NCBI GenBank assembly: GCA_965228735.1
Contig: OZ245838.1
Span: 4,640,001 to 4,704,000, forward strand
Origin: Planctomycetota bacterium
GTDB taxonomy: Bacteria; Planctomycetota; UBA1135; UBA2386
Length of the DNA stretch: 64,000 bases
Reading direction: 5' to 3'
A program made the position numbers and the translations under genes. Below, one piece after another: positions 1 through 17,444 of this stretch (positions are counted from its first letter, which is position 1; each line of letters opens with the position of its first letter). The notes under the pieces were generated by a model. It saw only the letters and a program-made list of their open reading frames with translations. It did no database searches and had not been told where the DNA came from.

Positions 1-2105
1 CGTGCGAGCCGCGCGAGCGTGACGACGTTGCCGTTGCGGCCCCCGACGACGAACAACGCGTGCGTCAGGTCCGGTTCCTGGGCTGCGGCCGCGTTGATCG
101 GAACGACGAACCGATGCTCACGCTCCGAGGCTCCGGTGAGACGTGCTCGCACGAATCGGGCCAGGCTCCGGATCGACCCGGCTTCGAACAGCGTCGAGAT
201 CGGCAACTCGAGCCCGGTGTGATCCAAGATTCTGGCGAAGACGCCGACCGCGATCAGCGAGTGCCCGCCGGCTTCGACGAAGTCGATGTCCGCATCGACG
301 GGGCGGCCCAGGGCGTCCCGGAACGCCGCCGCGATCACCGTCTCGAGTTCGTCCAGATGCTGAACGCCGTTCGTTGACGGCGTTGCGGGGGAGTCGCGCG
401 CGCTGTCGCGGTCCGCGAGCAGTGCGGCTGGGACGCTCAGCTCGAAGGACCGGTCGAGCGCACCGCCGTGCCTGCTGGTTGCGGATCTGCCCGACGTCGG
501 CTTGGAGGCCGCGCTCTTCGGTGATCGGGTGGCGGGTTCGTTCGTGTCGGGCGTGACCTCGCCAGCCCGGGAAGCGTCCATCTCGAGCGTTCCGTGTTCT
601 GCGATCGTTGCACCCGGCGCGATGGACCGCAGGAAGTCGAGTGCGGGCTCATTGCGATCGGTCTCTTTGTACTCGAGACCGACCTTGCCGAGACCTCGAT
701 CGCGGGCGATGTCACCGAGCCGCTGCAGCATCCGGTGCTCGACTCCCCGTCCGAGCGCGCGGCAACTCAGCAAGAACGTCGGAGCGACAACGGCATCCCC
801 GTTCACCCGGTAGATGACCAGGCCGACGATGCCGTACTCACCGAATCGGTCGCTGGCACCGACGAGGAACCCGCGATCTCCGGAGGCCAGATCGGACTCG
901 AGCTCGTCGACTTTCCGCCGCCGAACGGAGAGGTGGAACTGGTTCGTGCGCAGTGTCAGTTCCGATGCGCGATCCATCCGCTCCGAGTCGATGTCGTGGA
1001 ACGTCAACCGCAGCTCCAGGTTGGCCAGGAACTCGCCGAGCGACGGTGCCGTATCGCGGTTCGCCTCGCGCGACAGATGGGCGCGGTAATACTCGACGCG
1101 GCTGCCGGAGGCCGCATCGTTGCGTAGATCGAACGCCCAATGGTGATCGCAGAATCGCACCATGTCGGCGTCGTTGTCCGGAAACCTCGTGACCGTCACG
1201 CCGGGGCAGTTGGCTTCGACCTCGGCACACTCGACCGGGTTGTCGTCGACGAAGATGAAGCTGTCCGTCCCGAGGCTGAGCTTCTCCCCGATCTCCCGGA
1301 TGTTTTCGGATTTCGGTCGCCAGTTGACCGCGGCGATGGTGACCGAGTCGCGCGGCAGGACCATGTCGTCGCGCTCTGCCCAGACACGCTCGACGTCCTC
1401 GGCAGAGTTCTTGGAGCACAGACCGATGACGACTCCGGACTCGGCCTGCGTGACGAGAAGGCGGTGCAGGGCGAGGTGGCCCTCGGTCAGTTCGATTCCC
1501 GTCGGCCCGACCTCGCCGCAGACGCCACGCCACAGGGTGTTGTCGCAATCGACGATGATGGCCTTGTGCGTTGGCTTGGTCCGCCGGTGCACTGCTCGAG
1601 CGAGTGCGGTGGCCCAGGCCGCATAGCCCGCCGGGGTGAACGGCATGGCACCGATCTTGTCACTCGCCGGGTCGTCGAACCTGGGCGTGGGGTAGGCGGC
1701 CTTGACCTCGTCTTCGACGATCAGGGTCACGTTCGGACTCTGGTCGATCGAGGCGCGCGCCCGTTCGACGATCGAGCCCCATTCGGCAGTGCTCTGACCG
1801 GTGCCGCGGCAGAGCCCCAGAATTGTTGGCGACGGCTGACGGGCCGCGGTCGCGATCAACTCGACAATCTGATCGGGGCCCGAGTCCTGCCAATCCGAGG
1901 GGCGGACGAGCATGGCGTGCAGTCGGTCCTCGGCGTCAGGCCGGGCTGCGGACGCGAGCAGGGTCTGGAACACCTGCCCGAACCCGTCTTCCTCGACTGC
2001 CCAGGGCATGCCGAGAGCCGTCGCCCAATGGGCGAGCAGTTCGCGGATCGGTTGCACCGAGAAGGTGCCACCGACGACGACGGTGAGTTGCTGCGGAGAC
2101 GACAA
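1..2105 (-). CDS. FkbH-family (HAD-IIIC glyceryl transferase/phosphatase)-ACP-thioesterase multidomain protein; 3' end runs off the window
   Basis: Absent from the ORF track because there is no stop in the window. Manual translation from a TTG at 2105 gives LSSPQQLTVVGGTFSVQPIRELL..., the FkbH motif HKAIIVDCDNTLW (~1530-1568), the carrier motif DFVEAGGHSL (~255-285), and a TE-like start FVVPIN...LFVVGGRNGNV at the edge. These segments share one frame. The start codon is uncertain. Confidence 0.85.
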   Translation of the reverse strand, partial: MSSPQQLTVVVGGTFSVQPIRELLAHWATALGMPWAVEEDGFGQVFQTLLASAARPDAEDRLHAMLVRPSDWQDSGPDQIVELIATAARQPSPTILGLCRGTGQSTAEWGSIVERARASIDQSPNVTLIVEDEVKAAYPTPRFDDPASDKIGAMPFTPAGYAAWATALARAVHRRTKPTHKAIIVDCDNTLWRGVCGEVGPTGIELTEGHLALHRLLVTQAESGVVIGLCSKNSAEDVERVWAERDDMVLPRDSVTIAAVNWRPKSENIREIGEKLSLGTDSFIFVDDNPVECAEVEANCPGVTVTRFPDNDADMVRFCDHHWAFDLRNDAASGSRVEYYRAHLSREANRDTAPSLGEFLANLELRLTFHDIDSERMDRASELTLRTNQFHLSVRRRKVDELESDLASGDRGFLVGASDRFGEYGIVGLVIYRVNGDAVVAPTFLLSCRALGRGVEHRMLQRLGDIARDRGLGKVGLEYKETDRNEPALDFLRSIAPGATIAEHGTLEMDASRAGEVTPDTNEPATRSPKSAASKPTSGRSATSRHGGALDRSFELSVPAALLADRDSARDSPATPSTNGVQHLDELETVIAAAFRDALGRPVDADIDFVEAGGHSLIAVGVFARILDHTGLELPISTLFEAGSIRSLARFVRARLTGASEREHRFVVPINAAAAQEPDLTHALFVVGGRNGNVVTLARLA

Positions 2106-2354
2106 GATGGGCGAATTCAGGAGCTGGCCGACTATCGGCAACGCATAACTGGGAATTGACTTACGAAGGGTGGTCAGGCTCCCGGGAGGGCCGGGAGCCG
2201 AGCGTGAACGTGGCTTCGCAACGGGGGACCGAGCCGCGGCTCGCGGAGTCGGGCAACGCGGTCCGAGCCGTTGGTCCCGGTGCGAAGGGCGGAATGCGCC
2301 CCGTGACCAGCAGGTCCCGTCGGCGGAACCGCCAGGCCCCGCGGGGGCGAGGAA

Positions 2355-3239
2355 CTAACGGCCCGGCAGCTGGTTTGTTGCAGCAAGAATCGTCGCGGCG
2401 GTTCGTGCGGCCCGAGTACCGGTGTGAGTGTTCGTGATCTTCTGCAGGGCCGCCCGAGCCGTATCGACGGTGCCGCCGGCAGCCGATTCCGTGAGAGCAT
2501 CCCGGAGCGCCTTCTCGGCCGTGATCTCGGCGACGAGTTCCGGCGCCCTCGTCCGCTGCAACAATCCTGCAGCTCTCGCTGCCAGGGTCGAGTTGGCGCC
2601 CGTTCTTTCGATGGCCTCGCAAAGCTCGGTCGCACGAGCGTATGCACCACTCGCCATTGCCTTCTCGGCGAGTCTCATGAGTCGGGCCAGGTCGCGGGCT
2701 CGATCGGCCGTGGTCGCGCGTTGCTCGGCGACGTAGTTCCGCACGGCGGCCATGTCGTCGAGTGGATTGCCCTCCATCACGACCGTGCCTTCGGGGGAGA
2801 GCAGGATGTACGACGGAACCGACTGTCGGTTCATCTCGAAGGGGTAGCCGTTCGTGAAGATCGCCGAGGTCCCGAACCACCCGCGTTCGAGCCCGAGGCG
2901 GAGAACGTCGTCGAGCTCGTGGCGTCGCTCGATCAGGATCGCCTGGAAGTGGTCGTCGAACTGACGCTGCAGATCGAGTGACGCCGGCACGGACGTCGCA
3001 ATGCAATGCCCTCAATTCTTGCCCCAGATCAGGATGAGCACGGGCACGCCGCGCAGGTCTTCGAGCGACCCTACTCCTCGGTCGTGGAACATCGGGCGAG
3101 AGAACTCGTGGCTCAGCCGATCGCCGACGCGGATGGCGCCGGGGCGGTGCGGTTGCCCGCGCGTCTTCTTGTACCAGTAGATTCCCGCGGCAGCCGCCAG
3201 GACGAGAACGGCGACCAGGATGATGCTCGGCGTCTTCAT
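2355..3239 (-). CDS. Thioredoxin-fold (TlpA/redoxin-like) membrane-anchored protein with an in-frame TGA, probably selenocysteine (UxxC)
   Basis: ORFs 3012..3239 and 2355..2990 are in the same frame, joined through TGA (3012-3014): LRGVPVLILIWGKN-U-GHC-IATSVP. There is an N-terminal hydrophobic anchor and a later VPSYILLSPEGTVV cis-Pro motif. The ATG overlaps the upstream deacetylase stop (ATGA). Confidence 0.75.
2980..2997 (-). promoter_or_regulatory. Candidate bacterial SECIS hairpin
   Basis: Stem-loop GACGUC-CGUGCC-GGCGUC whose apical loop starts 20 nt after the UGA and has G at its second position. Confidence 0.55.
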
Positions 3240-4303
3240 CGTCGGAGTAACTCACGGAAGCGGCACACCTCGGCCCGGAAGCCGGCTGAGTCGTGTTCGT
3301 CGTCTCGAACGACGGTGCGTTGCATTGTGATGGCGATGCGAGTCAGGTTGATCGGATTCGTATCGCGCTGGTTCATGCCGCCGTCACGAAAACCGGCGTA
3401 GCGGTAACCAGCCGCTCGAACGGCGGCCTCGACCCGCGCGTCCGAGTCGCCATTGGGGTAACACAGGCCGGAGACCGGCTTGTGGGTCCACTCTGCGAGC
3501 TGAGCAGCAGATTGGCGCAGCTCATGATCGAGGTCCGCGTCGTTCAGCAGCGGCAGAATCGGATGCGTCACCGAGTGCGAGCCGATCTCGTGGCCGCCGC
3601 GATCGAGCTCGATTACCTGCTCGGGAGTCATGGGGCGGCACAACGTGGCGTCGAAGGTGCCGCTGGCGACCGCCTGGGCCCGTTCGACGAACTCCATTCG
3701 CCGGGCTCCGGGGAGCGCCTTGAGGCTGTCGGTCCACGCCTGGCCGGTTGGAGGCTGCCCGTCGGCGGTAGCGGCCGAGGATTCACGCCGGACGGACCGA
3801 AGCAATTCGACCTGATCCTCGCGCGACAGCCGATCCCAGACGAATGCCGCCCGGTCGAACCACAACGCCTGGCCCGATTTCACGAAGTCGCTCGTGACGT
3901 AGAAGGTCCCTCGAACACCGTGCTTCTCGAGGATCGGAGCGGCTAGCGCGTGGTTGTCCCAATAGCCGTCGTCGAAGCTGATGGCGAGCAAGGGGCGACT
4001 CGCGGGACGGCCGTTCGCGAGTTCGTCCATGGCTTCTACGACCGGCAGAACCTCACAGTGCGACGCGAGCCACTCGACCTGGGCGTCGAACGAGTTCTGC
4101 GGAATCACCAGGCTCGCGAGCGGGTAATCGCGGCAATCCTCGAGCGGCAGCACGCGGTGATACATGAGGATCGTCAATCCGCGGCGCATTCGCCGTTCCA
4201 TCAGGCGCATCAATCCGGTCAGTTCGGCGACGCGGTCGATCCCCGAACGCAAGCGATGCTTGAAGGTGCGGGCGAGGCCAGGGGACTCGACGGCGGACGT
4301 CAT
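3236..4303 (-). CDS. Polysaccharide deacetylase (CE4/NodB family)
   Basis: Motifs ILMYHRV, ISFDDGYWD, EIGSHSVTHP and CYPNG. Start MTSAVES overlaps the upstream GT2 stop. Confidence 0.92.
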   Translation of the reverse strand: MTSAVESPGLARTFKHRLRSGIDRVAELTGLMRLMERRMRRGLTILMYHRVLPLEDCRDYPLASLVIPQNSFDAQVEWLASHCEVLPVVEAMDELANGRPASRPLLAISFDDGYWDNHALAAPILEKHGVRGTFYVTSDFVKSGQALWFDRAAFVWDRLSREDQVELLRSVRRESSAATADGQPPTGQAWTDSLKALPGARRMEFVERAQAVASGTFDATLCRPMTPEQVIELDRGGHEIGSHSVTHPILPLLNDADLDHELRQSAAQLAEWTHKPVSGLCYPNGDSDARVEAAVRAAGYRYAGFRDGGMNQRDTNPINLTRIAITMQRTVVRDDEHDSAGFRAEVCRFRELLRR

Positions 4304-5229
4304 CACTTTGCCAAGGCCTCGGTCCGAGTCCGCTGTGGTGATCGCAGGATTGGCGCCCGGAGTCGGTCGCGAAAGCGGTTGTCGCCGCGCCCGGTGAGTC
4401 GTTTCACCAACGACCGTACGCCAACGACGGTGACTTCCGCGCAGTCCGCGAACGCCGCGGCGACGACGCCGAAGTGCTTGCGCAGGTAGTAGAACCGACT
4501 CTCGTAGTAGTGCTTCGAGATGTCTTGCCCGTGCATCGTCTCGTTGGTCTTGGCGGTGCTCGCTCCTGCGAGGTGCGAGGCCACGGCTGCGCCCGTGACC
4601 CACAGCTCGTGACCGGCCTCGCACACGCGGCGACAGAGATCGGTCTCCTCGAAGTACAGGAAGAACCGTGGATCGAATCCGCCGAGCGCGACCATGACGT
4701 CACGACGCGCGAGCAGCACTGCACCGCACAGCCAGTCGGTCCGACGTGGGGCGGACCCCGGTGGGACCGGCTCACTGGGTGGGATCCTCCACCCCGCGGC
4801 GGCGGCAATGACGCGCCATGGAGTCGGCAAGGGATGGATCTTCTGGGCGGAACCGTTCGGATTGAGGATCGCCGGCGCCACGATGGCGGCCTGCGGGTGC
4901 TGCTCCAAGTGCTCCTGCAAGATCGCGAGTGCCGGCAAGGGCAGGACGGCGTCGGGGTTCAGGAACAGCACGTAGTCACCCTCGGCCATCGCCAGGCCGA
5001 TGTTGCACCCTCGACCGAAGCCGACGTTCTCCTTGCTCGCCACGACATCGACCCAGGGGAATCGCGATTCGACGGAGCCGGCCGTGTCGTCCGTACTCGC
5101 GTTGTCCACGACGATGACGCGCACCGTGCCTGCAGCTTGCCCGTCCGCGAGCGCCTCGAGCGCCGCGTCGACCGTGCCGGCTGAGTTGTACGTCACGATG
5201 ACGACCGTGATCGGGGCGCTGCGACTCAT
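4303..5229 (-). CDS. Glycosyltransferase family 2
   Basis: Motifs VVIVTYNS, VVDNASTD, NVGFGRGCN, LFLNPD and GFDPRFFLYFEETDLC. Confidence 0.93.
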   Translation of the reverse strand: MSRSAPITVVIVTYNSAGTVDAALEALADGQAAGTVRVIVVDNASTDDTAGSVESRFPWVDVVASKENVGFGRGCNIGLAMAEGDYVLFLNPDAVLPLPALAILQEHLEQHPQAAIVAPAILNPNGSAQKIHPLPTPWRVIAAAAGWRIPPSEPVPPGSAPRRTDWLCGAVLLARRDVMVALGGFDPRFFLYFEETDLCRRVCEAGHELWVTGAAVASHLAGASTAKTNETMHGQDISKHYYESRFYYLRKHFGVVAAAFADCAEVTVVGVRSLVKRLTGRGDNRFRDRLRAPILRSPQRTRTEALAK

Positions 5230-6245
5230 GACCGACCGAACAGTTTCTCGGGGAGCGTGGGGTAGGCCCCGCCGGTCTTGTAGCGGAAGAACGTCATCGA
5301 CTCCGGTGCCGCGATACGGGTGAGCTGGTAGGGGTCGGAGGCCGACGTGATCTGACGTCGGGCGCCCGACGCAACGGCAGAACTCAGCCCGGCGGCCTCG
5401 ACGAGATTCCGGCCGTCGGCGTCCGACCGACCATAGGGGAACGAGAAGTGAGCGGGTTCGTAGCCGAGCTCGCGACGGAACTCGTCGCAGCACGTGGTGA
5501 CCTCGTGGTCTCGCACCGCCGAATCCGCGTTCTGCAGGTCGCAGTGATCGGAGGTGTGTACGCCCAGCTCCATCAGGTCGTAGTCGTCGCGCAGTCGTCG
5601 AGCCTCGTCCCAGTTCATCGTCAGCCTGGGTCCGGTCTCCCGTGGCTGCAGCTGTTCCGTGAGGGTGGCCAGCAGGGCCTGACGCTGATCGAGGTTTCCG
5701 AGGATCATCGCCGAGTTGATCTCGGCACGGGCGCTTCGCTCGACGGGCCCGTGGTCGAGGCGAATCGGCGTATTGCGACCAGGCAGCGCCAGGTCCTCGC
5801 GGCTGCGGGTCCGGAAGATCGTGTGGACGCGGTCGACCCACTGATTCTCGCCGCGGCCCACGTATCCCGTACAGAGGTAGAGCAACGCTGGCAGTCCGAG
5901 CTCCGCGAGAATCGGCGCGGCGACCTCCAGGTTGTCGAGGTAACCATCGTCGAGAGTGACGACGACCGTTCCTGCTGGTGGTTCTTCGCCCTTCCGGATC
6001 GTTGCGACGAGGTCGCTGAGACCGATCACGCGACGGTGTCGCGCGAGGAACGTCATCTGTCGACGGAACAAGTTGGCGTCGATCGTGTTGGAAGGATCGT
6101 GCCAGCTACGCCGCTCCGGCGTGGAGACGCTGTGATACATCAGGATCACGGCGCCGACCGGCGACGCGGCGCGAACGTAGATCCAGGACAGGCCGCTCAG
6201 GTAGAGCCCCGCGTGCAGACCTTGCAAGACTCGTTGCTTCAACAC
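5226..6245 (-). CDS. Polysaccharide deacetylase (CE4/NodB family), second copy
   Basis: Motifs ILMYHSV, VTLDDGYLDN, LGVHTSDH and FSFPYG. Confidence 0.92.
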   Translation of the reverse strand: MLKQRVLQGLHAGLYLSGLSWIYVRAASPVGAVILMYHSVSTPERRSWHDPSNTIDANLFRRQMTFLARHRRVIGLSDLVATIRKGEEPPAGTVVVTLDDGYLDNLEVAAPILAELGLPALLYLCTGYVGRGENQWVDRVHTIFRTRSREDLALPGRNTPIRLDHGPVERSARAEINSAMILGNLDQRQALLATLTEQLQPRETGPRLTMNWDEARRLRDDYDLMELGVHTSDHCDLQNADSAVRDHEVTTCCDEFRRELGYEPAHFSFPYGRSDADGRNLVEAAGLSSAVASGARRQITSASDPYQLTRIAAPESMTFFRYKTGGAYPTLPEKLFGRS

Positions 6246-6302
6246 GGAGGAGATCGGTGCTCAGAGGCAGGCGGTTCGAGGTCGAGCGAAAGGGAGCGGC
6301 GA

Positions 6303-7025
6303 TCAGAAGTTCCCCACGGGGAAGGCGATCGGCAGCGGCAGGTTCTGGCGGATGTACTTGTCGACCCAGACGTTGATCTTGTCGATCATGTTGTTCGGGA
6401 CGTAGATCACGTCGTGCGGTTGGAGGAACACTGGTGTGCCGTCCACCCAGTTGTCGAGTCCGGCATCGAACTGCCAGACCTGGTGCCTTCGTTCGACTGG
6501 GAGCCAGCGGATCAGCATCGCTTCTTCGAGGAGTGCGGATCCCTTGACCGGCCCTCCGGCGCGTCCGATGGCCTCCAGGAAGGTAAGCTCACCGCGCCCG
6601 AACGCGACGACGCCCGGTATGTTGACCTCGCCGATCACCGTGACTTCGCGCGGCGCCGGGTCGATGATGTCGACGGACACGGTGCCCGCGCCCACCTCGC
6701 TCTGGTTGGCGTAGGCTTCGCTGACCTTGGCGCCGAGCGCCCCGACGGATAGTCCCACCAGCTGGAGCTCGCCCACGAACGTGAACGTCGCGCGGCCGTC
6801 GTCGCGCACGATGGTTTGGTGGTCCCACTCCGGCTTCTGCGGGAACCGCACACCGATCGTATCACCCGCGACGACGAACGCCTGTGGGGAGAGCGTCGCG
6901 TTGATGTCGGGAGCAACGGCACGCAAGGCCGGGAACGAGCAGCCACTGGCCAGAGTCAACGCCAGGAGTCCGAGAACTCGGCCCCCTGCTCGACGTGCCA
7001 ACGAATCACGGTTGCTCTCACGCAT
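6303..7025 (-). CDS. Polysaccharide export lipoprotein (Wza/OPX family)
   Basis: Lipobox LASGC; polysaccharide-export motif GDTIGV...VRDDGRATFTFVGEL; SLBB motifs VIGEVNIPG, AIGRAGG and LQPHDVIYVP. Confidence 0.9.
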   Translation of the reverse strand: MRESNRDSLARRAGGRVLGLLALTLASGCSFPALRAVAPDINATLSPQAFVVAGDTIGVRFPQKPEWDHQTIVRDDGRATFTFVGELQLVGLSVGALGAKVSEAYANQSEVGAGTVSVDIIDPAPREVTVIGEVNIPGVVAFGRGELTFLEAIGRAGGPVKGSALLEEAMLIRWLPVERRHQVWQFDAGLDNWVDGTPVFLQPHDVIYVPNNMIDKINVWVDKYIRQNLPLPIAFPVGNF

Positions 7026-7086
7026 CGGTCGTCGAGCATACCCCGCGTCGTGCTCGGCACACAGCGAACCCGCGCCCCGGCGGGCA

Positions 7087-7992
7087 CTACGAATCGGCGC
7101 GGGGAGTCGTTCGCGCTTCTCTGCCCGCGAGCCGTTCTGCCACCGTCCGGAGCTGACAAAGGTCGCGCGGCCGCGCCAGGCGGGAAACGCGGACGGAGCG
7201 CGCCAGTGCCACGCAGCTCTGCATCAGCGATTCGGGGCCGCTGACGCCGCTGAGAAGTTCGGGGAAGTACGAGTGCCGCAGCAACGCGACGCCCGCGGTG
7301 AGTCCGCGGAGCGGCGTCGGTTCGACGCTTCCGGTCGAACTCAGAACGTAGACGTGGCGCAGCCGGACCGGGCTGTCGGCACAGGATTCCGCGGGTACCC
7401 TGGCGACGCGCTTCTCGGGGCGGTCGCCGGGGCCGATGGGCCGGTTGTCCGGTACGACCTCACGGGTGGCCACCGGTCCGGGTGCGACCATTGGCTCGGT
7501 AGCCGTGGGGTCGATTGCCGCGATGTCGTCCGTCACGAACCGGCAGCCGAATTCGACCATGAGCCTGGCCAGCGTCGACTTGCCGACCCCGGAATCGCCA
7601 GCGAACGCGATGCCGGCCATCGTCGCGGGCTGCGCGACGCAGCTCGCGTGCAGGCAGAAGAATCCGCGTTGTTGCAGGAGCAGCCCCATGGCGGGGCCGG
7701 CGATGAACTGTGCGAGGTCCTGACTCGGCTCGACGTCTACGCCGGATGGCGTCACGGTGATCGATCGCCCGTCACGGACGCGCAGCGCGCCGACCCCGGC
7801 GCGCACGATCGTCGAGTCCTGCGGCGACAGCCGGTGCCAGTCGCCGCTGTGATCGGGCGGCGCAGCCCCGTCGGCAGGGAGTGACGAGGTTTCGATCGTG
7901 ACGTCCGTTGCGTCACGCGAGGATTCCGGCCGCAGGCTGGGGAGCGGTACTTCCGAACGGATGGACAGTCCGTATGCGCGGTATGTCGGCAC
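7087..7992 (-). CDS. HPr-kinase-related lasso peptide kinase (PadeK/PsmK-like)
   Basis: LHAS motif, Walker A GDSGVGKST and VTDD motif. Lies immediately downstream of the lasso precursor. Confidence 0.85.
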   Translation of the reverse strand: MPTYRAYGLSIRSEVPLPSLRPESSRDATDVTIETSSLPADGAAPPDHSGDWHRLSPQDSTIVRAGVGALRVRDGRSITVTPSGVDVEPSQDLAQFIAGPAMGLLLQQRGFFCLHASCVAQPATMAGIAFAGDSGVGKSTLARLMVEFGCRFVTDDIAAIDPTATEPMVAPGPVATREVVPDNRPIGPGDRPEKRVARVPAESCADSPVRLRHVYVLSSTGSVEPTPLRGLTAGVALLRHSYFPELLSGVSGPESLMQSCVALARSVRVSRLARPRDLCQLRTVAERLAGREARTTPRADS

Positions 7993-8010
7993 GGACGAAC
8001 TGCCTCAACG

Positions 8011-8026
8011 ACCGAGCGCGCTCGGT
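8011..8026. other. Perfect 16-bp palindrome between precursor and kinase (possible mRNA-stabilising stem-loop)
   Basis: ACCGAGCGCGCTCGGT is its own reverse complement. Confidence 0.45.
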
Positions 8027-8066
8027 TGAACTCGAACGGTCCTGGGCAGAGCCAGCTGGCCGAGCG

Positions 8067-8237
8067 TTAGCTCGAGCCCGGGTTCGCCCACGGGTTCCAA
8101 CCCGATCCCTGGCCGTTGAAGAATTCGCCCCAGCGGCCGCCAATCCATTGCGTGAGTTCTTCGACTCGGCCTTGGACTTCGATGGATGGCGTTTCGTAGG
8201 TGCGGTCGGTGTCGTTGGAGTGAGTCTGATCGTTCAT
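8067..8237 (-). CDS. Lasso peptide precursor (56 aa: 30-aa leader and 26-aa core WIGGRWGEFFNGQGSGWNPWANPGSS)
   Basis: Sequence MNDQTHSNDTDRTYETPSIEVQGRVEELTQ|WIGGRWGE... has the YxxPxI RRE motif, G-x-V-x-x-L-T with Thr at -2, Glu at core position 8, and a C-terminal Ser. It is flanked by the cyclase and kinase. Confidence 0.9.
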   Translation of the reverse strand: MNDQTHSNDTDRTYETPSIEVQGRVEELTQWIGGRWGEFFNGQGSGWNPWANPGSS

Positions 8238-8343
8238 CAGAGAGCTAACCAGGGTAGAAGGGTCTGGCGCAGGGGCCATCAGAAGATACCCCAGCAACGG
8301 GGTGTGGGAAGGGGGGTTGCGCCTTTTCTTCGAGCGCCTCGGC

Positions 8344-10209
8344 TCAGCGCGAGCGGACCCAGAATCCGAGCAAGACGCCGAGCCAGAGCGCCATTCCGTC
8401 GGACTCCGCGATGCCACCGGGGGGTAGCGCCAGGATTCGGCGGAGTGCCCCGAGGTCCACGAACTCATCGAGGCCCGGAGAGTTGCGGAGTAGCGAATCG
8501 ATACGATCTCGGTCTGCGACCAGGAATCCCTGCTCGAACTGGTCACCCCAATGTGACTTGTGAACGCGAGTCCGGATTGCCTCGGGAACGATCCCGCGCA
8601 AGGCCCGGCGCTGGATGGCTCGATCGTAGCCGCCATGGAGTCGTTGCTCGGGTGGCAGCCCGTAGCAGAATTCGATCAGCCGGTGGTCGAAGTAGGGGTG
8701 CCGGTGATCGAGCCCGAACGCCGCGCTCGCCTTGTCGTGGACCTCGAGCGAGTGCGCGATCAGCGGGGTCGTCAGGGCGCGGTGGTGGGCCTCGCGCAAG
8801 CTTCGGGGCGGGCGGTTCGCCTCGACGACCGCCTGGCGATCTCGCATTCGGGCGGTCCAGTCGACTTCACGCGCAAAGCCGGGCGCGATGCTCGATGGCA
8901 CGGCCCCGAGTTCTCGTCGCCAGGAGCGGGTCACGGAACGGACCACCGGCGCGAGTCCGAAGTGCCAGAAGAACCGCTTCGTCGACTGCCGAAACACGCC
9001 GGCGAGTTGCCGGCACTCGCGCACGGCGCGAACGATGCGGCCGCGGCGCACGAGTTCGGCGAGCCAATCCGTGCCGTGACTGACGGTCGTGTCGCCATCG
9101 ACGCCGTCGATGACGGCTCGGATCCCGAGTTCGCGGGCGCGCCGGGCGAGTGACCAATAGACGTAGAGGTTGGGCGCGCAGAACGGTTCTTCGACCCGTT
9201 CGAGCATGGCGTCCACCTCGCGCAAGGGGCTCGTGCTGCTCGCCGAGACGAACTCTGCCGGCCACGGCTCGTTCGGTTCGTCGTCGCCGTTCGCCGCGAG
9301 GACCAGGTCGATGTACTGCCGCTCGTCGATCCGCGGGAAGTCGGGGAACAGCGCCGACAGCGTCGTGATCGGATGCGCTCCCCAGGCTTTCCGATTCGCG
9401 TGCGCGAGCCGGACCAGGCCTGACGAATCCAGGCCGCCGCTCAGCAGGATCGCCGTCGGCTCGTCGCGGTGCAGGCGGCAGCGGAGCGCTTCCGTGAGCG
9501 TGTCGCGGAAGCGCTCGGCATAGCTCTGGTCATTGGCCAGCTCGACGCGGTGATCCGGGTCGAGCGCCCAGTAGCGGCGCAGGGACTCCCCGCTCTCGCG
9601 GACGGTCAGGGAATGGCCGGGTGGCAGCCGTCGAACGTGCTCGTAGAACGTGCGGTCGTGGTCGGCGAATACCTGGCCGAGGTAGTCCGCGATCTTGCCG
9701 TTGTCGAGATCACGCGGCACGTCGGCGGCGTCGAGCAGCGGGCCGATCTCCGATGCGAAGACGAAACGCTCGGGCGCGAGGTGGTAGTAGAACGGGCGCG
9801 TTCCGAGGCGGTCTCGCGCGCAGAACAGCTGACGCTCGAGGGATGACCAGATGGCAACCACGAAGTCACCGAACAGGTGCTCGGGGCAGCTCTCACCCCA
9901 GCGTTCATAGGCCCGCAAGACGATGTCGGCGGGGGTCGCATCGGCCGGGGCGTCGAGTTCGGCTGCGAGGTCCGAGAGGTTGTCGATGCGGGCCGCGATC
10001 GCGGCGATTCGACCGTTGCGCTGCGCGATCGCGGCCTCGGACCCGGTCGGGGCGAGCACGCCGAACGCCGCGCCGGCCGTGTTCGTCGCGAGGCGAGCTG
10101 CGCCGCGATGCGCCATCCGACCGGCCATTGCGGCAATTCGGTCCCGGTCGAGGGGGCGTTCGTCCCGTTGCCAGGCTCCAACGAGCCCGCTGCTGATGAT
10201 CCCGATCAT
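8344..10209 (-). CDS. Lasso peptide cyclase (asparagine synthetase-like C protein)
   Basis: Motifs ARDRLGTRPFYY, FASEIGPL, LPPGH, PP-loop LLSGGLDSS, DGVDGD and RHPYFDHRLIEF. The N-terminal catalytic Cys of AsnB (CGI) is replaced by SGLVG. Confidence 0.92.
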   Translation of the reverse strand: MIGIISSGLVGAWQRDERPLDRDRIAAMAGRMAHRGAARLATNTAGAAFGVLAPTGSEAAIAQRNGRIAAIAARIDNLSDLAAELDAPADATPADIVLRAYERWGESCPEHLFGDFVVAIWSSLERQLFCARDRLGTRPFYYHLAPERFVFASEIGPLLDAADVPRDLDNGKIADYLGQVFADHDRTFYEHVRRLPPGHSLTVRESGESLRRYWALDPDHRVELANDQSYAERFRDTLTEALRCRLHRDEPTAILLSGGLDSSGLVRLAHANRKAWGAHPITTLSALFPDFPRIDERQYIDLVLAANGDDEPNEPWPAEFVSASSTSPLREVDAMLERVEEPFCAPNLYVYWSLARRARELGIRAVIDGVDGDTTVSHGTDWLAELVRRGRIVRAVRECRQLAGVFRQSTKRFFWHFGLAPVVRSVTRSWRRELGAVPSSIAPGFAREVDWTARMRDRQAVVEANRPPRSLREAHHRALTTPLIAHSLEVHDKASAAFGLDHRHPYFDHRLIEFCYGLPPEQRLHGGYDRAIQRRALRGIVPEAIRTRVHKSHWGDQFEQGFLVADRDRIDSLLRNSPGLDEFVDLGALRRILALPPGGIAESDGMALWLGVLLGFWVRSR

Positions 10210-10323
10210 GGAAACGTCGCGCCCCGGAGGACAGCGGCCGGAGCATACTGGCCGATGTTGCGTTACGCTTCCCGGGCCTTGCCGAGGGAAGTTCGGCACA
10301 TGTGGGTCGACCCGACGCAGCGC

Positions 10324-10623
10324 ATGACAGGAGACATCGGACTCAACTCGGTCGTTCGAGCAAACATTCGTCAGCTTTCGGTCGAGATCGACGGCGAGAC
10401 CGTCCTGCTCAACTTCGACGACGGATTCTACTACTCGATCAACTCGGTCGGAGCGCGGATCTGGACGCTGGTCCAGGACGCGACCCGAGTGTGCGACGTG
10501 AAGGCGGCGTTGCTTTCGGAGTTCGACGTCGACTCGGCCAGATGCGAGGCCGACCTGCTGGCGCTGCTCGCCGACCTCGAGGCGAAGAACCTCATCGAGG
10601 TACTCGATGCGGATCCTGCGTAG
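10324..10623 (+). CDS. PqqD-family RiPP recognition element (lasso B1/E protein)
   Basis: 99 aa: EIDGETVLLNFDDGFYYSINSVGARIWTLV...EFDVDSARCEADLLALLADLEAKNLI, a typical PqqD pattern. Confidence 0.92.
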   Translation: MTGDIGLNSVVRANIRQLSVEIDGETVLLNFDDGFYYSINSVGARIWTLVQDATRVCDVKAALLSEFDVDSARCEADLLALLADLEAKNLIEVLDADPA

Positions 10624-11053
10624 GTTCTGGCGGCTGTCGTTCTCCGAGAAGCTGATGCTCGGCAAGGCGTGGGGGTTGCTCGCCGTCGTGCGAAGCAGCA
10701 TGTGGATCGCGGGGTTCGCGCGGACCAAGCGCTGGGTCGATCGTCGACACGCGCGCGTGGAACGACTCGTGCGGTCGCGCCAGGAGCCGCATCGGATCGC
10801 CCGAATGGTCGAGATCGCGAGTCACTTCTTCCCTGGCGGTCGGCATTGCCTGAGTCGGGCGATGGTGCTCGAGGTGCTGCTGCGCCGCCGCGGCTACGAC
10901 GCCAAACTGGAGATCGGTGTCGCGTTGGCGGATGCACCCGTCCAGAGCGGGTCACGGCTCTCGGCGCACGCCTGGGTCACGCACGGTGACCGGATCCTTC
11001 TCGGTGGAGCCGAGGCTCCCGACTTCAAGCGGTTGACGCGGTCGGGTCGGTGA
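10607..11053 (+). CDS. Lasso peptide leader peptidase (B2, transglutaminase-like)
   Basis: Catalytic Cys in HCLSRA, the IGV motif, and His in AHAWV. Overlaps the RRE gene. Confidence 0.92.
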   Translation: MRILRRFWRLSFSEKLMLGKAWGLLAVVRSSMWIAGFARTKRWVDRRHARVERLVRSRQEPHRIARMVEIASHFFPGGRHCLSRAMVLEVLLRRRGYDAKLEIGVALADAPVQSGSRLSAHAWVTHGDRILLGGAEAPDFKRLTRSGR

Positions 11054-12051
11054 CTCGTTCGACGGACAGCTTCTCCGCGGCGGACGCGCCGCCTCGCATC
11101 CGCGTCACCGCGCTGCAGAAGCGCTACCCGCGGAACCGCAATCTGCTGCGGTTCCTGCGCGCGCCGCATCGCCGCGACTACACGATGGCGCTCCGTGGGG
11201 TCGATCTCGTGATCCCGCAGGGCGGCATCTACGCGCTCCTCGGCCCCAACGGCGCTGGCAAGACGACGCTACTGAAAGCGCTCTCGGGTCTGCTCCTGGC
11301 CAACTCTGGCACGATCGAGATCGATGGCATCGACCTGACGAACGAGCCGCGGAAGTTGCGCAATCGCGTCGCGCTGGCCGTGTGCGACGAACGTTCGTTC
11401 TACTGGCGCATCAGCGGCCGCGAGAACCTGCGGTTCTACGCGACGCTCAACGGGCTCGAGGGCGCGGCGCGCGATCGCCGGATCGATGAATGCCTCGCGA
11501 TGGTGCGGTTGGGGTCGGCTGGCGATCGGCGCTACATGGAGTACTCGGCGGGCATGCGGCAGAGCCTCGCGCTGGCGCGCGGGCTGTTGCTCGATCCGCC
11601 GATCCTCCTCATGGACGAGCCAACGCGGTCGCTCGACCCCGAGGCCACGGCGGCGGTCCACGATGTGATCACCGGGTTGCAGGCTGCCGATCCGAGCCGC
11701 GTGTTCTTCTACTCGACCCATGACCTGGCCGAGGCGGAATCGATCTCGAGTGATGTCATCGTGCTGCGGGGCGGGCGCATCGTGATGCAGCGGAGCCTCG
11801 CTCGCGAGGCCGGCTACGTCTACCGCGTGCGCACCCATCCCGAGCTGCCCGAGAGATTGCTCGACGACATCGACGGGCTGCAGGTGCTGGGCAGCTCGGA
11901 AGCCGGCACGGTCGTCGAGTTCGCCGAGTTCCGGACGCTCGATGCGGTGCTCGCGCGGCTCGCCGAGCGTCGTTTGCAGGTGCGCGAGGTCGCAGAGCAG
12001 CGGTCGCGGCTCGGCGAACTGTATCGCTCGAGCGCGGAGGCGCAGCGATGA
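11050..12051 (+). CDS. ABC transporter ATP-binding protein (likely lasso exporter)
   Basis: Motifs GPNGAGKTT, YSAGMRQ, LLMDEPT and STHD. Overlaps the B2 stop (GTGA). Confidence 0.92.
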   Translation: MTRSTDSFSAADAPPRIRVTALQKRYPRNRNLLRFLRAPHRRDYTMALRGVDLVIPQGGIYALLGPNGAGKTTLLKALSGLLLANSGTIEIDGIDLTNEPRKLRNRVALAVCDERSFYWRISGRENLRFYATLNGLEGAARDRRIDECLAMVRLGSAGDRRYMEYSAGMRQSLALARGLLLDPPILLMDEPTRSLDPEATAAVHDVITGLQAADPSRVFFYSTHDLAEAESISSDVIVLRGGRIVMQRSLAREAGYVYRVRTHPELPERLLDDIDGLQVLGSSEAGTVVEFAEFRTLDAVLARLAERRLQVREVAEQRSRLGELYRSSAEAQR

Positions 12052-12863
12052 GTCTGCCACGCACGGCTGTCGCGTTCCTGCGGCGCGAGTTCCTCGAAGA
12101 GGCGTCCTACCCGCTCAAGGTCGTGTTCGGGTTCGGCGCGGCGATCGTGAGTATCGGGTTCCTCGTAATCTTCGCCGACTTCGTCGGCGCCACGATGGCC
12201 GGCAGCGGTGAAGGGCGAATGGCACACGGCTACCTGCCGTTCGCGCTCGTCGGACTGAGCTTCCACACGCTGCTCGATACCGCTTTGCGCGAACTGAGCT
12301 CGCGGATTCGCCGGGCGCAGATGCAGGGCACGTTCGAGGCGCTGCTCGCGACGAGCACGCCGCTGCCCGTGCTCATGCTCGCGCTGCCGCTCTACCCGTT
12401 GCTGCGGACGTGCTCGCGATTCGTGTTGCTGCTCTTGTTCGGGTGGCTCGTCCTGGATGTGCCGCTCAGCTTCGGCAACTGGCCCGTCGTGCTCGTGGCG
12501 TTCGGGCTTGCCGTGACCGTCTTCACGGCGATCGGTCTCGTGTTCGCCGGCCTCACGGTCGTGTTCAAGCAGACCGAGCCGCTGATCGCCGTCTTCAACG
12601 CGTCGTGTTTCTTCCTCGGTGGCGTGATCGTGCCGTCGGGTGAGTTGCCCGCGGTGCTGCAATGGGTCGGCGTGCTGTTGCCGATCACCCCGGCGCTCGA
12701 GGCGTTCCGGATCGCTGCGATCGATGGTGGCGACTTCGCGGCTGCAGGGCCGGTGCTCGGACAACTGGCCGTCTTCGCGGTCGTCCTCGTGCCGTTCAGC
12801 GTCGTCGTGTTCCGCTGGTCGATTCGGCAGGCGCTTCGCGACGGCAGCCTCGGGCACTACTGA
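12048..12863 (+). CDS. ABC-2 type transporter permease
   Basis: Multiple hydrophobic segments, GTFEALLAT and LPAVLQWVGVLLPIT. Translationally coupled to the ATPase. Confidence 0.9.
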   Translation: MSLPRTAVAFLRREFLEEASYPLKVVFGFGAAIVSIGFLVIFADFVGATMAGSGEGRMAHGYLPFALVGLSFHTLLDTALRELSSRIRRAQMQGTFEALLATSTPLPVLMLALPLYPLLRTCSRFVLLLLFGWLVLDVPLSFGNWPVVLVAFGLAVTVFTAIGLVFAGLTVVFKQTEPLIAVFNASCFFLGGVIVPSGELPAVLQWVGVLLPITPALEAFRIAAIDGGDFAAAGPVLGQLAVFAVVLVPFSVVVFRWSIRQALRDGSLGHY

Positions 12864-12874
12864 CCGGTCGCGCC

Positions 12875-13537
12875 CTACAACGGCGGCCAGGCCTTGACCG
12901 CCATGAGACACCCATCGCCCACCGGCACGATGATCGAGTTGAGGCGCGGCTCGTCCTGGACCAGCTTCAAGAACGCCCGCAGGCCCTGCGCGCGCGGCGT
13001 GTCGTTCTTCGGATCGTCGATCTCGCCGCCGTCGAGCACGTTGTCGGCGAACAGCGTGCCGCCGGGTCGCAGGATCCGCATCGCGTGCGCGAAGTAGTCG
13101 GGGTAGCCCTCCTTCTCCGCGTCGATGAACACGGCGTCTGCCGTGCCGTCCGCGTGCTGGTTCAGGGTCTCGTGCGCGTCGCCGACGATGATCTGGATCT
13201 TGTCCTTCTGCTGGGATTTCAGGATCCAGTCCTGGGCGAAGGCTGCGTGGATCGGCTCGAGCTCGTGGGTGACGACGGTGCCGTCCGCGGCGAGCCCGCG
13301 CGCCATCGCGATCGCCGAGTAGCCGCCGAGGGTGCCGACCTCCACGACCCGAACGGCCTTGGTCGCCGCGAGCGCGATCTGCAGGAAGGCGGCCTGCTCG
13401 GGCGCGATCTGGATCTCCGGCAGGCCGGCTTCGACCGCGGCGGTGCGCAGATCGCGCAGCAGCTCGTCCTCGGGAATGGTCTGGCCGCGGATGAAGTCGA
13501 AGAGCGGGGCGTCGACCGGCGTGCTCAGCTTGGACAT
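12875..13537 (-). CDS. SAM-dependent O-methyltransferase (caffeoyl-CoA OMT-like family)
   Basis: Motifs VEVGTLGGYS, FIDAEK and ADNVL. Confidence 0.92.
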   Translation of the reverse strand: MSKLSTPVDAPLFDFIRGQTIPEDELLRDLRTAAVEAGLPEIQIAPEQAAFLQIALAATKAVRVVEVGTLGGYSAIAMARGLAADGTVVTHELEPIHAAFAQDWILKSQQKDKIQIIVGDAHETLNQHADGTADAVFIDAEKEGYPDYFAHAMRILRPGGTLFADNVLDGGEIDDPKNDTPRAQGLRAFLKLVQDEPRLNSIIVPVGDGCLMAVKAWPPL

Positions 13538-13566
13538 GCGCGCAAGGTAGCGCTATCCATGCCGCA

Positions 13567-14133
13567 GTGAACCCTGGTTTCGAACCCGCGGCGGCCAAGA
13601 GCCGGCTGCTCGAGCTCGTTCGCGAGCGCGCCTACAAGGACGGCCTCGATATCGTGCTCGCGTCCGGCAAGCGCTCCGACTTCTACATCAACGGCAAGAA
13701 GGTCTCGCTGCACCCCGAAGGCCTCTGGCTGATCGCGCGGCTCCTGCTGCACAAGCTCGAGGCCTATCCCGACATCACCGCGGTCGGCGGGCTGACGCTC
13801 GGCGCGGATCCGTTGGCCAGCGCGGTCGCGGCGCTGTCGTTCGAGACCGGCCAGAACCTCAAGGCGTTCCTCGTTCGCAAGGAGGCGAAGGGGCACGGCA
13901 CCGGCTCGCGCATCGAGGGTGATCTCGAGAAGGGCGAGAAGGTCTGCGTTCTCGAGGACACGGTCACGACCGGCGGCAGCGCGAAGAAGGCGATCGACGC
14001 GGTGCTCGAGGTCGGTGCGGAACCCGTCGTCGTGATGACGATCGCCGATCGCGAGGACCCGGACGCCGAGCCGTTCCGCCAGGAGTGGAAGGTCGAGTCG
14101 CTCGTGACGCTGAGCGAGATCCGCAACGGCTGA
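13567..14133 (+). CDS. pyrE: Orotate phosphoribosyltransferase
   Basis: Motifs LASGKRSDFY, GGLTLGADP, RKEAKGHG and the PRPP motif LEDTVTTGGS. Confidence 0.95.
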   Translation: MNPGFEPAAAKSRLLELVRERAYKDGLDIVLASGKRSDFYINGKKVSLHPEGLWLIARLLLHKLEAYPDITAVGGLTLGADPLASAVAALSFETGQNLKAFLVRKEAKGHGTGSRIEGDLEKGEKVCVLEDTVTTGGSAKKAIDAVLEVGAEPVVVMTIADREDPDAEPFRQEWKVESLVTLSEIRNG

Positions 14134-14148
14134 TGCAGAGGCCCCGGC

Positions 14149-15540: not shown

Positions 15541-16171
15541 CATCGAAGTCCTGCACCTCGACGACTTCCTCGCGATCGTGAACAAGCCCGCGGGCGTGCT
15601 CGTCGTGAATGCCCCTGGCCGTCGCGGACCGACCCTCGTCGACAGGATGCGGCGGCAGCTCGGCGGCTACGTCGAGCCCGTGCACCGGCTCGACGAGGAC
15701 ACGACGGGGGCGATCGCGCTGGCGCGAAGTCCGGAGGGCCGTTCGGCGCTCGAGGGCGTGTTCCGGCGGCACGCTGCCGAGCGCGTCTATCTCGCGCTGA
15801 CGACGGCGGCGCCGTCACCGCCGGCAGGCCGGATCGAATCGCAGCTCAAAGCGGATGATGCGGGGGTGATGCGCGTGGTGCCGTCGGGCGGCGAACGCGC
15901 CGTGACGCACTACGAGACGGTCGAAAGGCGCGGCCGCTGCACGCTCGTGCGATGCGAGCTCGAGACCGGTCGCCGCAACCAGATCCGCGCCCACCTCGCG
16001 GCGCTCGGCTGCCCGGTGGCCGGGGATCGCAAGTACGGCTATCGGCGCCGGGCTGACGAGCGCTTCGGGCGTGTCATGCTGCATGCCTGGCGGCTCGCGC
16101 TTCGGCATCCGATTCTTGGCAACGAAGTGGACGTAACGGCGGTTGCCCCGGAACCCGACCTACGGCCTTGA
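15533..16171 (+). CDS. RluA-family pseudouridine synthase
   Basis: Motifs VNKPAG, HRLDEDTTG, ETGRRNQIRAH and GDRKYG. Confidence 0.93.
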   Translation: MTDIEVLHLDDFLAIVNKPAGVLVVNAPGRRGPTLVDRMRRQLGGYVEPVHRLDEDTTGAIALARSPEGRSALEGVFRRHAAERVYLALTTAAPSPPAGRIESQLKADDAGVMRVVPSGGERAVTHYETVERRGRCTLVRCELETGRRNQIRAHLAALGCPVAGDRKYGYRRRADERFGRVMLHAWRLALRHPILGNEVDVTAVAPEPDLRP

Positions 16172-16263
16172 ACGTGCCGAGGCGGGTGTCTCACGATGGA
16201 AGCGGGTCGAGCCTCGACTAGCATGTCCGTGTCACTCTGCTGCCGGTCGGGACGGCTTCGGTA

Positions 16264-17358
16264 TTGAACGATCATCTACGCGCGATCCTGAAAGGAGTCT
16301 TCGGTGACGGCTCGGCCTCCCAGGCGGACGAGTTTCGGGCGGCCTGCAGCCGTGTACGGCCCGCGGACTGGGGCGGTTTGTTGCCGGAGCTGGAGAGTCA
16401 CCGCCTCGCGCCCCTGGTCGGCTACACCGCCCGCCGGCTCGATCTCGAGTCCGCCATTCCGTCGGCGCCACGGGAGCGGTTGCGGGAGTCGTATCGCGCG
16501 GCCTTTTTGTTTGCCGAACTACAGTCTCGAGCTCTGCGCGACATTCTGGTGGCCCTGCGCGCTGGCGGGGTCGAGCCGATCATCTTCAAGGGCCTCGTGC
16601 TGAGCGGCGCGTTCTATCCCGATCGAGGGGCCCGGCCGATGGTCGACGTGGACTTCCTGGTTGCGGTTTCCGAGCTGAAGCGCACGGTCCGCGCGCTGCG
16701 AAAGCTGGGCTACACGCGACGCATTCGCGATGGTGTCGTGGGGCCGAATGGGTTCGTCAACCCGTTCGGTGTCGTCATTGATCTGCATTGGCAATTCGAC
16801 TTGTTTGCCCCGGACCAGCATGCCGAGATCACTGAGGACCGCGCGATCCGAGAACTCGGAGAGCATCCGATTCGCTCGTGGGAGCCCAACGCGATGCTCG
16901 TCCATCTCGTGTACCACCTCGTCGGACATCGCGAAGGCACCGGGATCAACCTCGGCTGGCTCGTCGACATCGGGTTCCTCGTCCGTTCCGATGGCGATCG
17001 CATGAACGTCGACGCGATTCGTCGGCTCGCGCCCACCGATGCCTGCTTCGCGATGGTCTGGCGCATTCTCGCGTTCCTCGAACGCGACTGCGGTGTCGAA
17101 CTTCCGGCGCACCTCGCCCAGCAGGCGGCGCTTTACGAACCGCTCTCCCTGCCGCGCATCCTGCGCGAGAGCCGGCTTCGCCCCTGGGGCCTGCCCGGTC
17201 TCGTCGGTGCCGGACGGTTCCTGTTCCGGCGCGTGTTCGGCGGGTCCACCAAGCGTCGCAATCCGACCTTGACCGACCTCGCGCTCGCGATCACCGACCG
17301 GATCCAGGACCGCCGCGCGGACAGCCGCGCCATCGCGACCGTGCGAACGCAGTCTTGA
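16264..17358 (+). CDS. Nucleotidyltransferase family protein (NTP_transf_5-like, the type found in lasso clusters)
   Basis: Motifs GVEPIIFKG...YPDRGARPMVDVDFLV, IDLHW and WLVDI. Confidence 0.8.
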   Translation: MNDHLRAILKGVFGDGSASQADEFRAACSRVRPADWGGLLPELESHRLAPLVGYTARRLDLESAIPSAPRERLRESYRAAFLFAELQSRALRDILVALRAGGVEPIIFKGLVLSGAFYPDRGARPMVDVDFLVAVSELKRTVRALRKLGYTRRIRDGVVGPNGFVNPFGVVIDLHWQFDLFAPDQHAEITEDRAIRELGEHPIRSWEPNAMLVHLVYHLVGHREGTGINLGWLVDIGFLVRSDGDRMNVDAIRRLAPTDACFAMVWRILAFLERDCGVELPAHLAQQAALYEPLSLPRILRESRLRPWGLPGLVGAGRFLFRRVFGGSTKRRNPTLTDLALAITDRIQDRRADSRAIATVRTQS

Positions 17359-17444
17359 GGCCGCGCGGGGCCCCTCGGCAGCCTGCCCGCTCGACCGCAT
17401 TTCCGCCTACGGTCGCACCGCATTCGGACTAAGATCTGCCGCGC

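Follow-up and report, generated by a model that had tools for sequence, protein, structure and literature searches.

A complete lasso peptide gene set linked to polysaccharide export genes in a Planctomycetota bacterium

Background

Among the lasso peptides described so far, pseudomycoidin of Bacillus pseudomycoides comes close to the system reported here. Its cluster, psmC-A-K-B1-B2-N-D, encodes a cyclase, a split B1/B2 pair, an HprK-like kinase, an exporter, a precursor ending in Ser and the nucleotidyltransferase PsmN with two catalytic Asp residues, and PsmN is needed for the addition of one or two hexoses to the phosphorylated terminal Ser (PMC6993621). In Bacilli, paeninodin-like lasso clusters and LPPs (linear polyphosphorylated peptides) are embedded in capsular polysaccharide loci, and in Paenibacillus lasso and exopolysaccharide genes are upregulated together; for this group, linear analogues that lack the cyclase have also been described and a part in biofilms has been put forward as a hypothesis, the role being given as unknown in 2026 (PMC13381572). 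Here, we report a complete lasso peptide gene set that sits inside a polysaccharide island of a Planctomycetota bacterium (GTDB lineage UBA1135; UBA2386; assembly GCA_965228735.1). The window, meaning the whole stretch of DNA analyzed, is 64,000 nucleotides (nt) long (contig OZ245838.1, positions 4,640,001 to 4,704,000). Judged by gene neighborhoods, the peptide genes stay linked to polysaccharide export genes far more often than chance would give. Because the theme is already published for Bacilli (PMC13381572), the value of the locus lies in sharpening the open question of the peptide's role.

All the pseudomycoidin components listed above have counterparts here. Unlike pseudomycoidin (PMC6993621), the present system belongs to another phylum, has a core that starts with Trp and holds four Trp residues, is split into two divergent units with the nucleotidyltransferase gene displaced, exports through an ABC-2 ATPase and permease (ABC, ATP-binding cassette), and lies beside wza. 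As in paeninodin-like clusters and LPPs (PMC13381572), the kinase, nucleoside triphosphate transferase and RRE lie within a polysaccharide locus. By the published account those families are confined to Bacillota, whereas the host here is a planctomycete, and paeninodin RREs favor WxxP leaders, whereas the leader here is YxxP, so that neither the Trp-type leader nor the Bacillota host of the strict paeninodin clade is found. LPPs rely on an S26 peptidase, with phosphorylation at Ser3 (PMC13381572), whereas cyclase-less relatives of our locus keep B2 and a C-terminal Ser; the locus itself has both cyclase and B2, with no S26 match among the open reading frames (ORFs) scanned. The Gram-negative bsf cluster of Bradymonas sediminis shares the kinase, RRE, B2 and nucleotidyltransferase gene, but BsfK targets Ser3 and the bsf leader has Ile(-2) (PMC10368454), whereas the ring predicted here has no Ser and the leader has Thr(-2). 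By their descriptions, fusilassin and cellulassin share the Trp1 ring chemistry predicted here and are set apart by a Trp1-Glu9 ring, as against Trp1-Glu8 (10.1101/2020.11.25.399105), and the davasins are alike in being glycosylated lasso peptides associated with a deacetylase/GT2 protein, IgtG (PMC11912497). IgtG is one fused membrane protein that acts directly on a Ser hydroxyl, whereas here the deacetylases and GT2 are encoded separately, and conservation of the peptide module does not extend to them.

Gene content of the locus

The minus-strand unit begins with the lasso cyclase (8344..10209), an AsnB-like protein of 621 amino acids (aa) with an SGGLDS motif and without an N-terminal Cys. 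It scores 501 bits against NF033535 (cut-off, 525) and 207 bits against the AsnB family, and its 52% identical orthologues in relatives G306 and G304 pass the NF033535 cut-off (G000 denotes the genome of this window, other G numbers the genomes of relatives, and L numbers the sequence stretches around loci). It is followed on the same strand by the precursor (8067..8237; 56 aa; over the NF033521 cut-off) and the HprK-like peptide kinase (7087..7992; PF07475, below cut-off). The plus-strand unit starts 114 nt from the cyclase and diverges from it; its four genes, mutually overlapping, encode the PqqD-like RRE or B1 protein (10324..10623; PF05402; top PDB match, the TbiB1 structure), the leader protease B2 with its Cys and His motifs (10607..11053; over the NF033537 cut-off), an exporter ATPase of DrrA/NodI type by family match (11050..12051) and an ABC-2 permease (12048..12863; PF01061). 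A PsmN-like nucleotidyltransferase (16264..17358, plus strand; PF14907) is separated from the exporter by 3.4 kb and four unrelated genes. By tblastn it has no second copy in the genome, and it is 32 to 41% identical to the nucleotidyltransferases adjoining the kinase in the closest relatives, and on these two grounds we count it as a displaced member of the cluster. Positions 1 to 17500 of the window were found unchanged, on one contig each, in three public runs, which may include the source of the window, and the host genome carries 11 PSCyt1 domains, which are typical of planctomycetes.

An earlier sequence-only reading of the window had described nine minus-strand genes in the order cyclase, precursor, kinase, wza, deacetylase, GT2, deacetylase, UxxC redoxin and FkbH-ACP-TE (ACP, acyl carrier protein; TE, thioesterase), and ORF coordinates and family matches bear this order out. 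The successive gaps are 106, 74, 61, 57, −4, −4, −4 and 213 nt; overlaps are thus confined to the deacetylase-GT2-deacetylase-redoxin block, and the gap before FkbH is a longer one. That reading had missed half of the lasso cluster, namely, the plus-strand RRE, B2 and exporter genes (10324-12863) and the nucleotidyltransferase.

The precursor has a YxxP leader, Thr(-2) and a 26-residue core, WIGGRWGEFFNGQGSGWNPWANPGSS, with Trp1, Glu8, four Trp residues in total and a C-terminal Ser. The leader motifs, the Glu8 acceptor, the AsnB-like macrolactam synthetase and the RRE and B2 pair are those of a lasso peptide cluster, and a knotted product with a ring joining Trp1 and Glu8 is predicted. By its alignment, the core is a member of a conserved Trp1/Glu8 family: in 10 rows (this precursor and the 9 homologues found), core Trp1, Gly4, Trp6, Gly7, Glu8, Phe9, Phe10, Gly12 and a GWNPW motif are invariant, as are leader Tyr14, Pro17 and Thr29. 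A profile search returned 22 representatives, which gave 31 proteins when pooled with the homologue set; after exclusion of the repeat proteins P0033 and P0035 from the core counts (P0028 was parsed by hand), 25 of the remaining 29 have a terminal Ser, and Asp or Glu occupies one of core positions 7 to 9 in 23. In P0035 (268 aa), a motif resembling a lasso leader recurs five times, each time with a short acidic unit rich in Ser and Thr behind it, and the protein is a possible multi-core precursor.

Conservation of the linkage

Kinase homologues (E ≤ 1e-10) were sought across 339 genomes of the order, with six candidates scored per genome, and were found in 12 genomes from 9 genera and 2 families, their kinases being spread over several deep clades of the kinase tree. 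On the kinase contig, wza or wzc lies within 12 kb in 10 of the 12 and within 27 kb in 11, whereas a random position in this genome would fall that close to wza with a probability of 0.7% and 1.5%, respectively. The kinase-wza distance is 0.06 kb here, 1.6 kb in G195, 1.8 in G080, 4.0 in G306, 4.7 in G215, 5.0 in G214, 6.4 in G035, 9.6 in G023, 11.2 in G114 and 26.2 in G064; in G303 wzc lies 1.5 kb from the kinase on a contig of 9 kb, and in G304 the locus falls on two contigs, one with the kinase and the other with the cyclase and, at a distance of 9.8 kb from it, wza. In two relatives wza leads directly into the peptide genes: in G195 it is separated from the RRE gene by 13 nt, and in G080 the two genes overlap by 1 nt. 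The linkage for which the earlier reading had proposed a synteny check is therefore a conserved one, with wza or wzc within 27 kb in those 11 kinase genomes. Since wza homologues occur in 196 of the 339 genomes and the kinase in 12, the peptide module is an accessory that the polymer pathway does not need.

Beyond the order, 15 cyclase loci were tallied (two shorter Nitrospiraceae loci were scanned partly or not, and L030, which is AsnB-like, and L032, a contig-end fragment, were dropped). Of the 8 cyanobacterial loci, 7 have a glycosyltransferase or wzc at a distance of about 10 kb or less, and glycan genes flank the cyclase at similar range in Methanobacterium oryzae. The archaeal locus (L029:7439-21622) is a full lasso cluster amid GT2, GT4 and Alg13/Alg14-like genes, with RRE, B2, ABC transporter, a cyclase over cut-off, a precursor ending in Ser, kinase and nucleotidyltransferase. 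Two Nitrospira loci (L026:8106-15575 and L031) carry lasso clusters with a PRMT-like methyltransferase, a kinase and a nucleotidyltransferase, and have Met-rich cores ending in Cys-Leu. In G306, a hybrid polyketide synthase/nonribosomal peptide synthetase cluster adjoins the lasso cyclase (L043:568-14332).

Loss of the cyclase

A cyclase is present at the locus in 6 of the 12 kinase genomes (G000, G306, G304, G023, G035 and G114), and none was found at the locus in G214, G215, G195, G080, G064 and G303 (genomes 69 to 94% complete; the G303 contig begins just before the RRE). In the cyclase-less genomes the best genome-wide match to the cyclase has an E value of 1e-31 to 1e-51, as against ≤1e-109 for syntenic cyclases. 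Metagenome locus L036 shows a clean deletion of the cyclase: directly before its RRE stands the gene (48% identical) that in G306 is found on the far side of the cyclase. Loci without a cyclase occupy three distinct positions in the kinase tree. Asp or Glu at core position 7 to 9 was found in 5 of 6 cyclase-bearing and 0 of 6 cyclase-less genomes (Fisher p 0.015, overstated by kinship), with cyclase-less L036, which retains Glu8, as an exception. All 12 kinase genomes keep the RRE, B2, kinase and a transferase match (weak in G035), and all 15 of their precursors end in Ser. Because the cyclase was repeatedly lost, in most cases along with the ring acceptor, while kinase, transferase, B2 and terminal Ser stayed, function would seem to rest on the modified tail more than on the knot.

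The cyclase-less clusters L058:13719-18039, L063:13916-18377, L061:12728-14620, L045-L046 and L049 carry RRE, B2, kinase and nucleotidyltransferase with Ser-ending cores that have no ring acceptor, and would encode linear phosphopeptides of a different kind from the LPPs, which depend on S26. Between the kinase and nucleotidyltransferase of G064 (L061:14630-19400) lies about 5 kb of repeated sequence with transposase-like ORFs. Weak cyclase matches in G028, G032, G033 and G034 were set aside as ordinary AsnB-like proteins (G028 and G032 were inspected).

The order thus offers a natural series in which the same neighborhood and Ser tail occur with and without a cyclase, including a clean deletion between close relatives, and this series points attention to tail modification and the matrix rather than to antibiotic activity. 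The conserved Trp1/Glu8 core family is a further addition. Literature searches returned no description of that family, no report of the linkage outside Bacilli and no cyclase-less forms keeping B2 and a C-terminal Ser, in a scope outside of which subscription papers and the supplements of PMC13381572 may hold one.

Predicted tail modification

In the kinase, His115, the P-loop and Asp155-Asp156 are invariant in 16 of 16 homologue rows, and its top PDB matches are HprK structures. The DxD motif of the nucleotidyltransferase (Asp128 and Asp130) is invariant in 19 of 19 rows. A PDB sequence search with this protein gave 0 matches; its structural model (predicted local distance difference test score, 92) has antibiotic and tRNA nucleotidyltransferases as leading fold matches, among them ANT(2'') (Z 14.7; root mean square deviation [rmsd], 3.5; 165 residues aligned), to which PsmN has also been likened by Zyubko et al. 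(PMC6993621), and, further down the ranking, the phospho-sugar transferase FKRP (Z 9.1; rmsd, 3.2; 139 aligned). The locus therefore has what distinguishes the pseudomycoidin type, namely, an HprK-like kinase with His, P-loop and Asp-Asp, a C-terminal Ser and a PsmN-like transferase with DxD. By analogy, the tail of the peptide is likely to be phosphorylated and hexosylated; the earlier suggestion of a phosphorylated or glycosylated peptide is made plausible by the pseudomycoidin precedent (PMC6993621) and by the presence of the nucleotidyltransferase that it requires.

Proposed pathway and alternatives

In the pseudomycoidin-like pathway that we propose, the RRE would bind the leader, the kinase would phosphorylate the C-terminal Ser, B2 would cleave after Thr-Gln, the cyclase would join Trp1 to Glu8, the PsmN-like enzyme would add or enable a hexose on the phosphate, and the ABC-2 pump would export the peptide. 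The product would be a Trp1-Glu8 lasso with a phosphorylated and probably hexosylated C-terminal Ser, for which the calculated monoisotopic masses are 2832.26 when cyclised, 2912.23 with the phosphate, 3074.28 with one hexose added and 3236.33 with two. It may work together with the slime matrix in an accessory role, without being covalently built into it. That last step, drawn from the gene neighborhood, is the least supported of the series; it is suggested because relatives keep the neighborhood even after losing the cyclase. We give the pathway as a whole an even chance of being right. Several findings weigh against it: the cyclase scores below the curated NF033535 cut-off, the nucleotidyltransferase is displaced from the cluster in this genome, and the kinase-bearing relatives are kin and not independent, with six candidates per genome scored in the search. 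The two Nitrospira loci with full flanks (L026 and L031) have no glycan genes among the ORFs scanned, and G413, from 401 genomes sampled across the phylum, carries a close core with cyclase, RRE and transferase amid flagellar genes, with no kinase, B2 or wza match in 40 kb. Because G413, L026 and L031 are unlinked, the linkage is not universal.

The unlinked G413 locus also fits a passenger or conflict module, that is, a free antibacterial, antiphage or signal peptide for which the islands are transfer hot spots with biofilm-stage expression. The module is patchily distributed (in both same-genus genomes searched, 88 to 90% complete, it was not found), its gene order is heavily shuffled among loci and its core is Trp-rich and strongly conserved; patchiness in Bacilli has been read as typical of biological conflict (PMC13381572). 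Against this stand the near-invariant adjacency of wza or wzc across distant kinase clades, the glycan genes flanking the cyclase in the cyanobacterial and Methanobacterium loci tallied above and the ring-less cores, which are very different (basic and Trp-poor) and share only the Ser tail. We consider a conflict module rather unlikely. In a covalent peptide-polysaccharide hybrid, the idea of the earlier reading, the glycosyltransferases of the locus would lengthen the Ser-phosphate-sugar tail, or the tail would be attached to the polymer, and the peptide would in this way prime, anchor or decorate the polysaccharide. Such a hybrid would agree with the retention of terminal Ser, kinase and nucleotidyltransferase where the knot is dispensable, with the direct wza-RRE coupling in G195 and G080, with the lower-ranked FKRP fold, and with the deacetylase and GT2 genes adjoining this cluster, given that IgtG, a glycosyltransferase of lasso peptides, is itself of the deacetylase/GT2 kind (PMC11912497). 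Yet a module present in 12 genomes, where wza is present in 196, cannot prime the polymer in general; a dedicated ABC-2 exporter serves the peptide, the adjoining glycosyltransferases vary between loci, the best matches of this wza lie in genomes without a kinase match, and the leading folds of the transferase are antibiotic and tRNA nucleotidyltransferases. We therefore find such a hybrid improbable, and we place as little weight on its wider form, in which the phosphoserine tail is a polysaccharide handle that yields a ribosomal peptide-glycan conjugate with the lasso knot as an optional, repeatedly lost cap.

The sequence-only reading had also drawn the stretch from cyclase to FkbH as one operon, and a single long operon could yield one hybrid product, with FkbH-ACP-TE acylating the peptide. 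The nine genes are indeed codirectional, and the kinase-wza gap, in which a consensus scan found no terminator-like site, folds no better than shuffled sequences (z, 0.15), so that a hairpin after the kinase was rejected as a terminator. Set against this are a promoter-like motif before wza, a 9-bp hairpin (z, −3.3) in the 213-nt gap before FkbH, the finding of FkbH in only 4 of 12 related genomes, each time on a contig other than that of the peptide genes, and a gene order seen in no relative. As a conserved unit the operon fails: wza directly follows the kinase in 0 of 11 other kinase genomes, where the transferase or exporter usually follows the kinase, and FkbH and the redoxin, which had been included in it, have no match in any of the 24 stretches drawn from 13 related peptide loci. 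The stretch is probably not one operon, and a single acylated hybrid product is very improbable.

Transcription

A σ70 consensus scan found 0 promoters and is uninformative at 69% GC; a motif was therefore derived from the genome itself, in the interval 6 to 11 nt before the start codon and with a rough gene caller. The resulting TAnnnT motif occurs in that interval before 210 of 1,428 divergent genes (~15%) and 119 of 736 codirectional genes with 40- to 100-nt gaps, as against 14 of 963 overlapping genes and 61 of 29,545 internal ATGs, a genome-wide pattern that suggests frequent leaderless transcription. In front of wza, TATGCT lies 9 nt upstream of the ATG, in a flanking context of middling score (19% of coding TAnnnT sites score equally well). 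We infer from the motif a leaderless promoter, which is compatible with read-through, and wza probably starts its own transcript.

Polysaccharide island and accessory genes

The minus-strand genes after the kinase encode a wza-like polysaccharide export lipoprotein (6303..7025; PF02563 and SLBB), a polysaccharide deacetylase (5226..6245; PF01522) whose 43% identical orthologue adjoins the cyclase in G304, a GT2 glycosyltransferase (4303..5229; PF00535), a second polysaccharide deacetylase (3236..4306; PF01522), a putative selenoprotein with a UxxC motif (2355..3239) and the 958-aa FkbH-ACP-thioesterase (1..2141; TIGR01686 over cut-off; PP-binding and thioesterase), which extends 735 bases past the window start, its thioesterase domain lying outside the window. 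Most of the polysaccharide locus is outside the window: a stretch of about 27 kb beyond the window start holds genes, largely on the plus strand and converging on FkbH, that encode a Wzc-like protein, an unassigned 437-aa protein, Wzx, a GNAT protein, a second AsnB protein with N-terminal Cys, GT4, WecG, a sulfotransferase and two further GT2 proteins. The window wza is the only wza match in the island, which has one Wzc-like gene, and is one of two copies in the genome over cut-off. The island thus has the Wza, Wzc-like copolymerase, Wzx and glycosyltransferases of a Wzx/Wzy-type system, the Wzc-like protein matching TIGR03007 below cut-off (E, 3e-19); as to a Wzy polymerase and an initiating transferase, the 437-aa protein between wzc and wzx had no family match, and no Bac_transf was found among the ORFs scanned.

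FkbH would load a glyceryl unit onto a carrier protein. In G304, orthologues of FkbH (53% identical) and of the redoxin (49%) lie beside other island genes on separate contigs; because of this, and because neither was found in the stretches from the 13 peptide loci, we count both as traveling with the polysaccharide island. We infer a role in the polysaccharide pathway for wza, both deacetylases, GT2, the selenoprotein and FkbH.

The UGA of the UxxC gene (3014-3012, residue 76) probably encodes selenocysteine: the genome carries selA and tRNA-Sec, and of 9 homologues examined, 8 show a stop where the UGA aligns and 1 shows Cys. Homologues occur in 174 of the 339 genomes of the order, most listed rows having one in-frame TGA. 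The protein has no Pfam or NCBIfam match, its designation as a redoxin coming from the motif, and one fold gave no clear selenocysteine insertion sequence; database entries of the family begin after the UGA. At the far end of the island, L001:191-5228 (4608-4613 kb of the genome) holds a cassette of ACP, acyl-CoA dehydrogenase, DUF1839 and GH2-like genes, which is also found in G304 at 62 to 75% identity and possibly acylates the polymer together with FkbH-ACP-TE.

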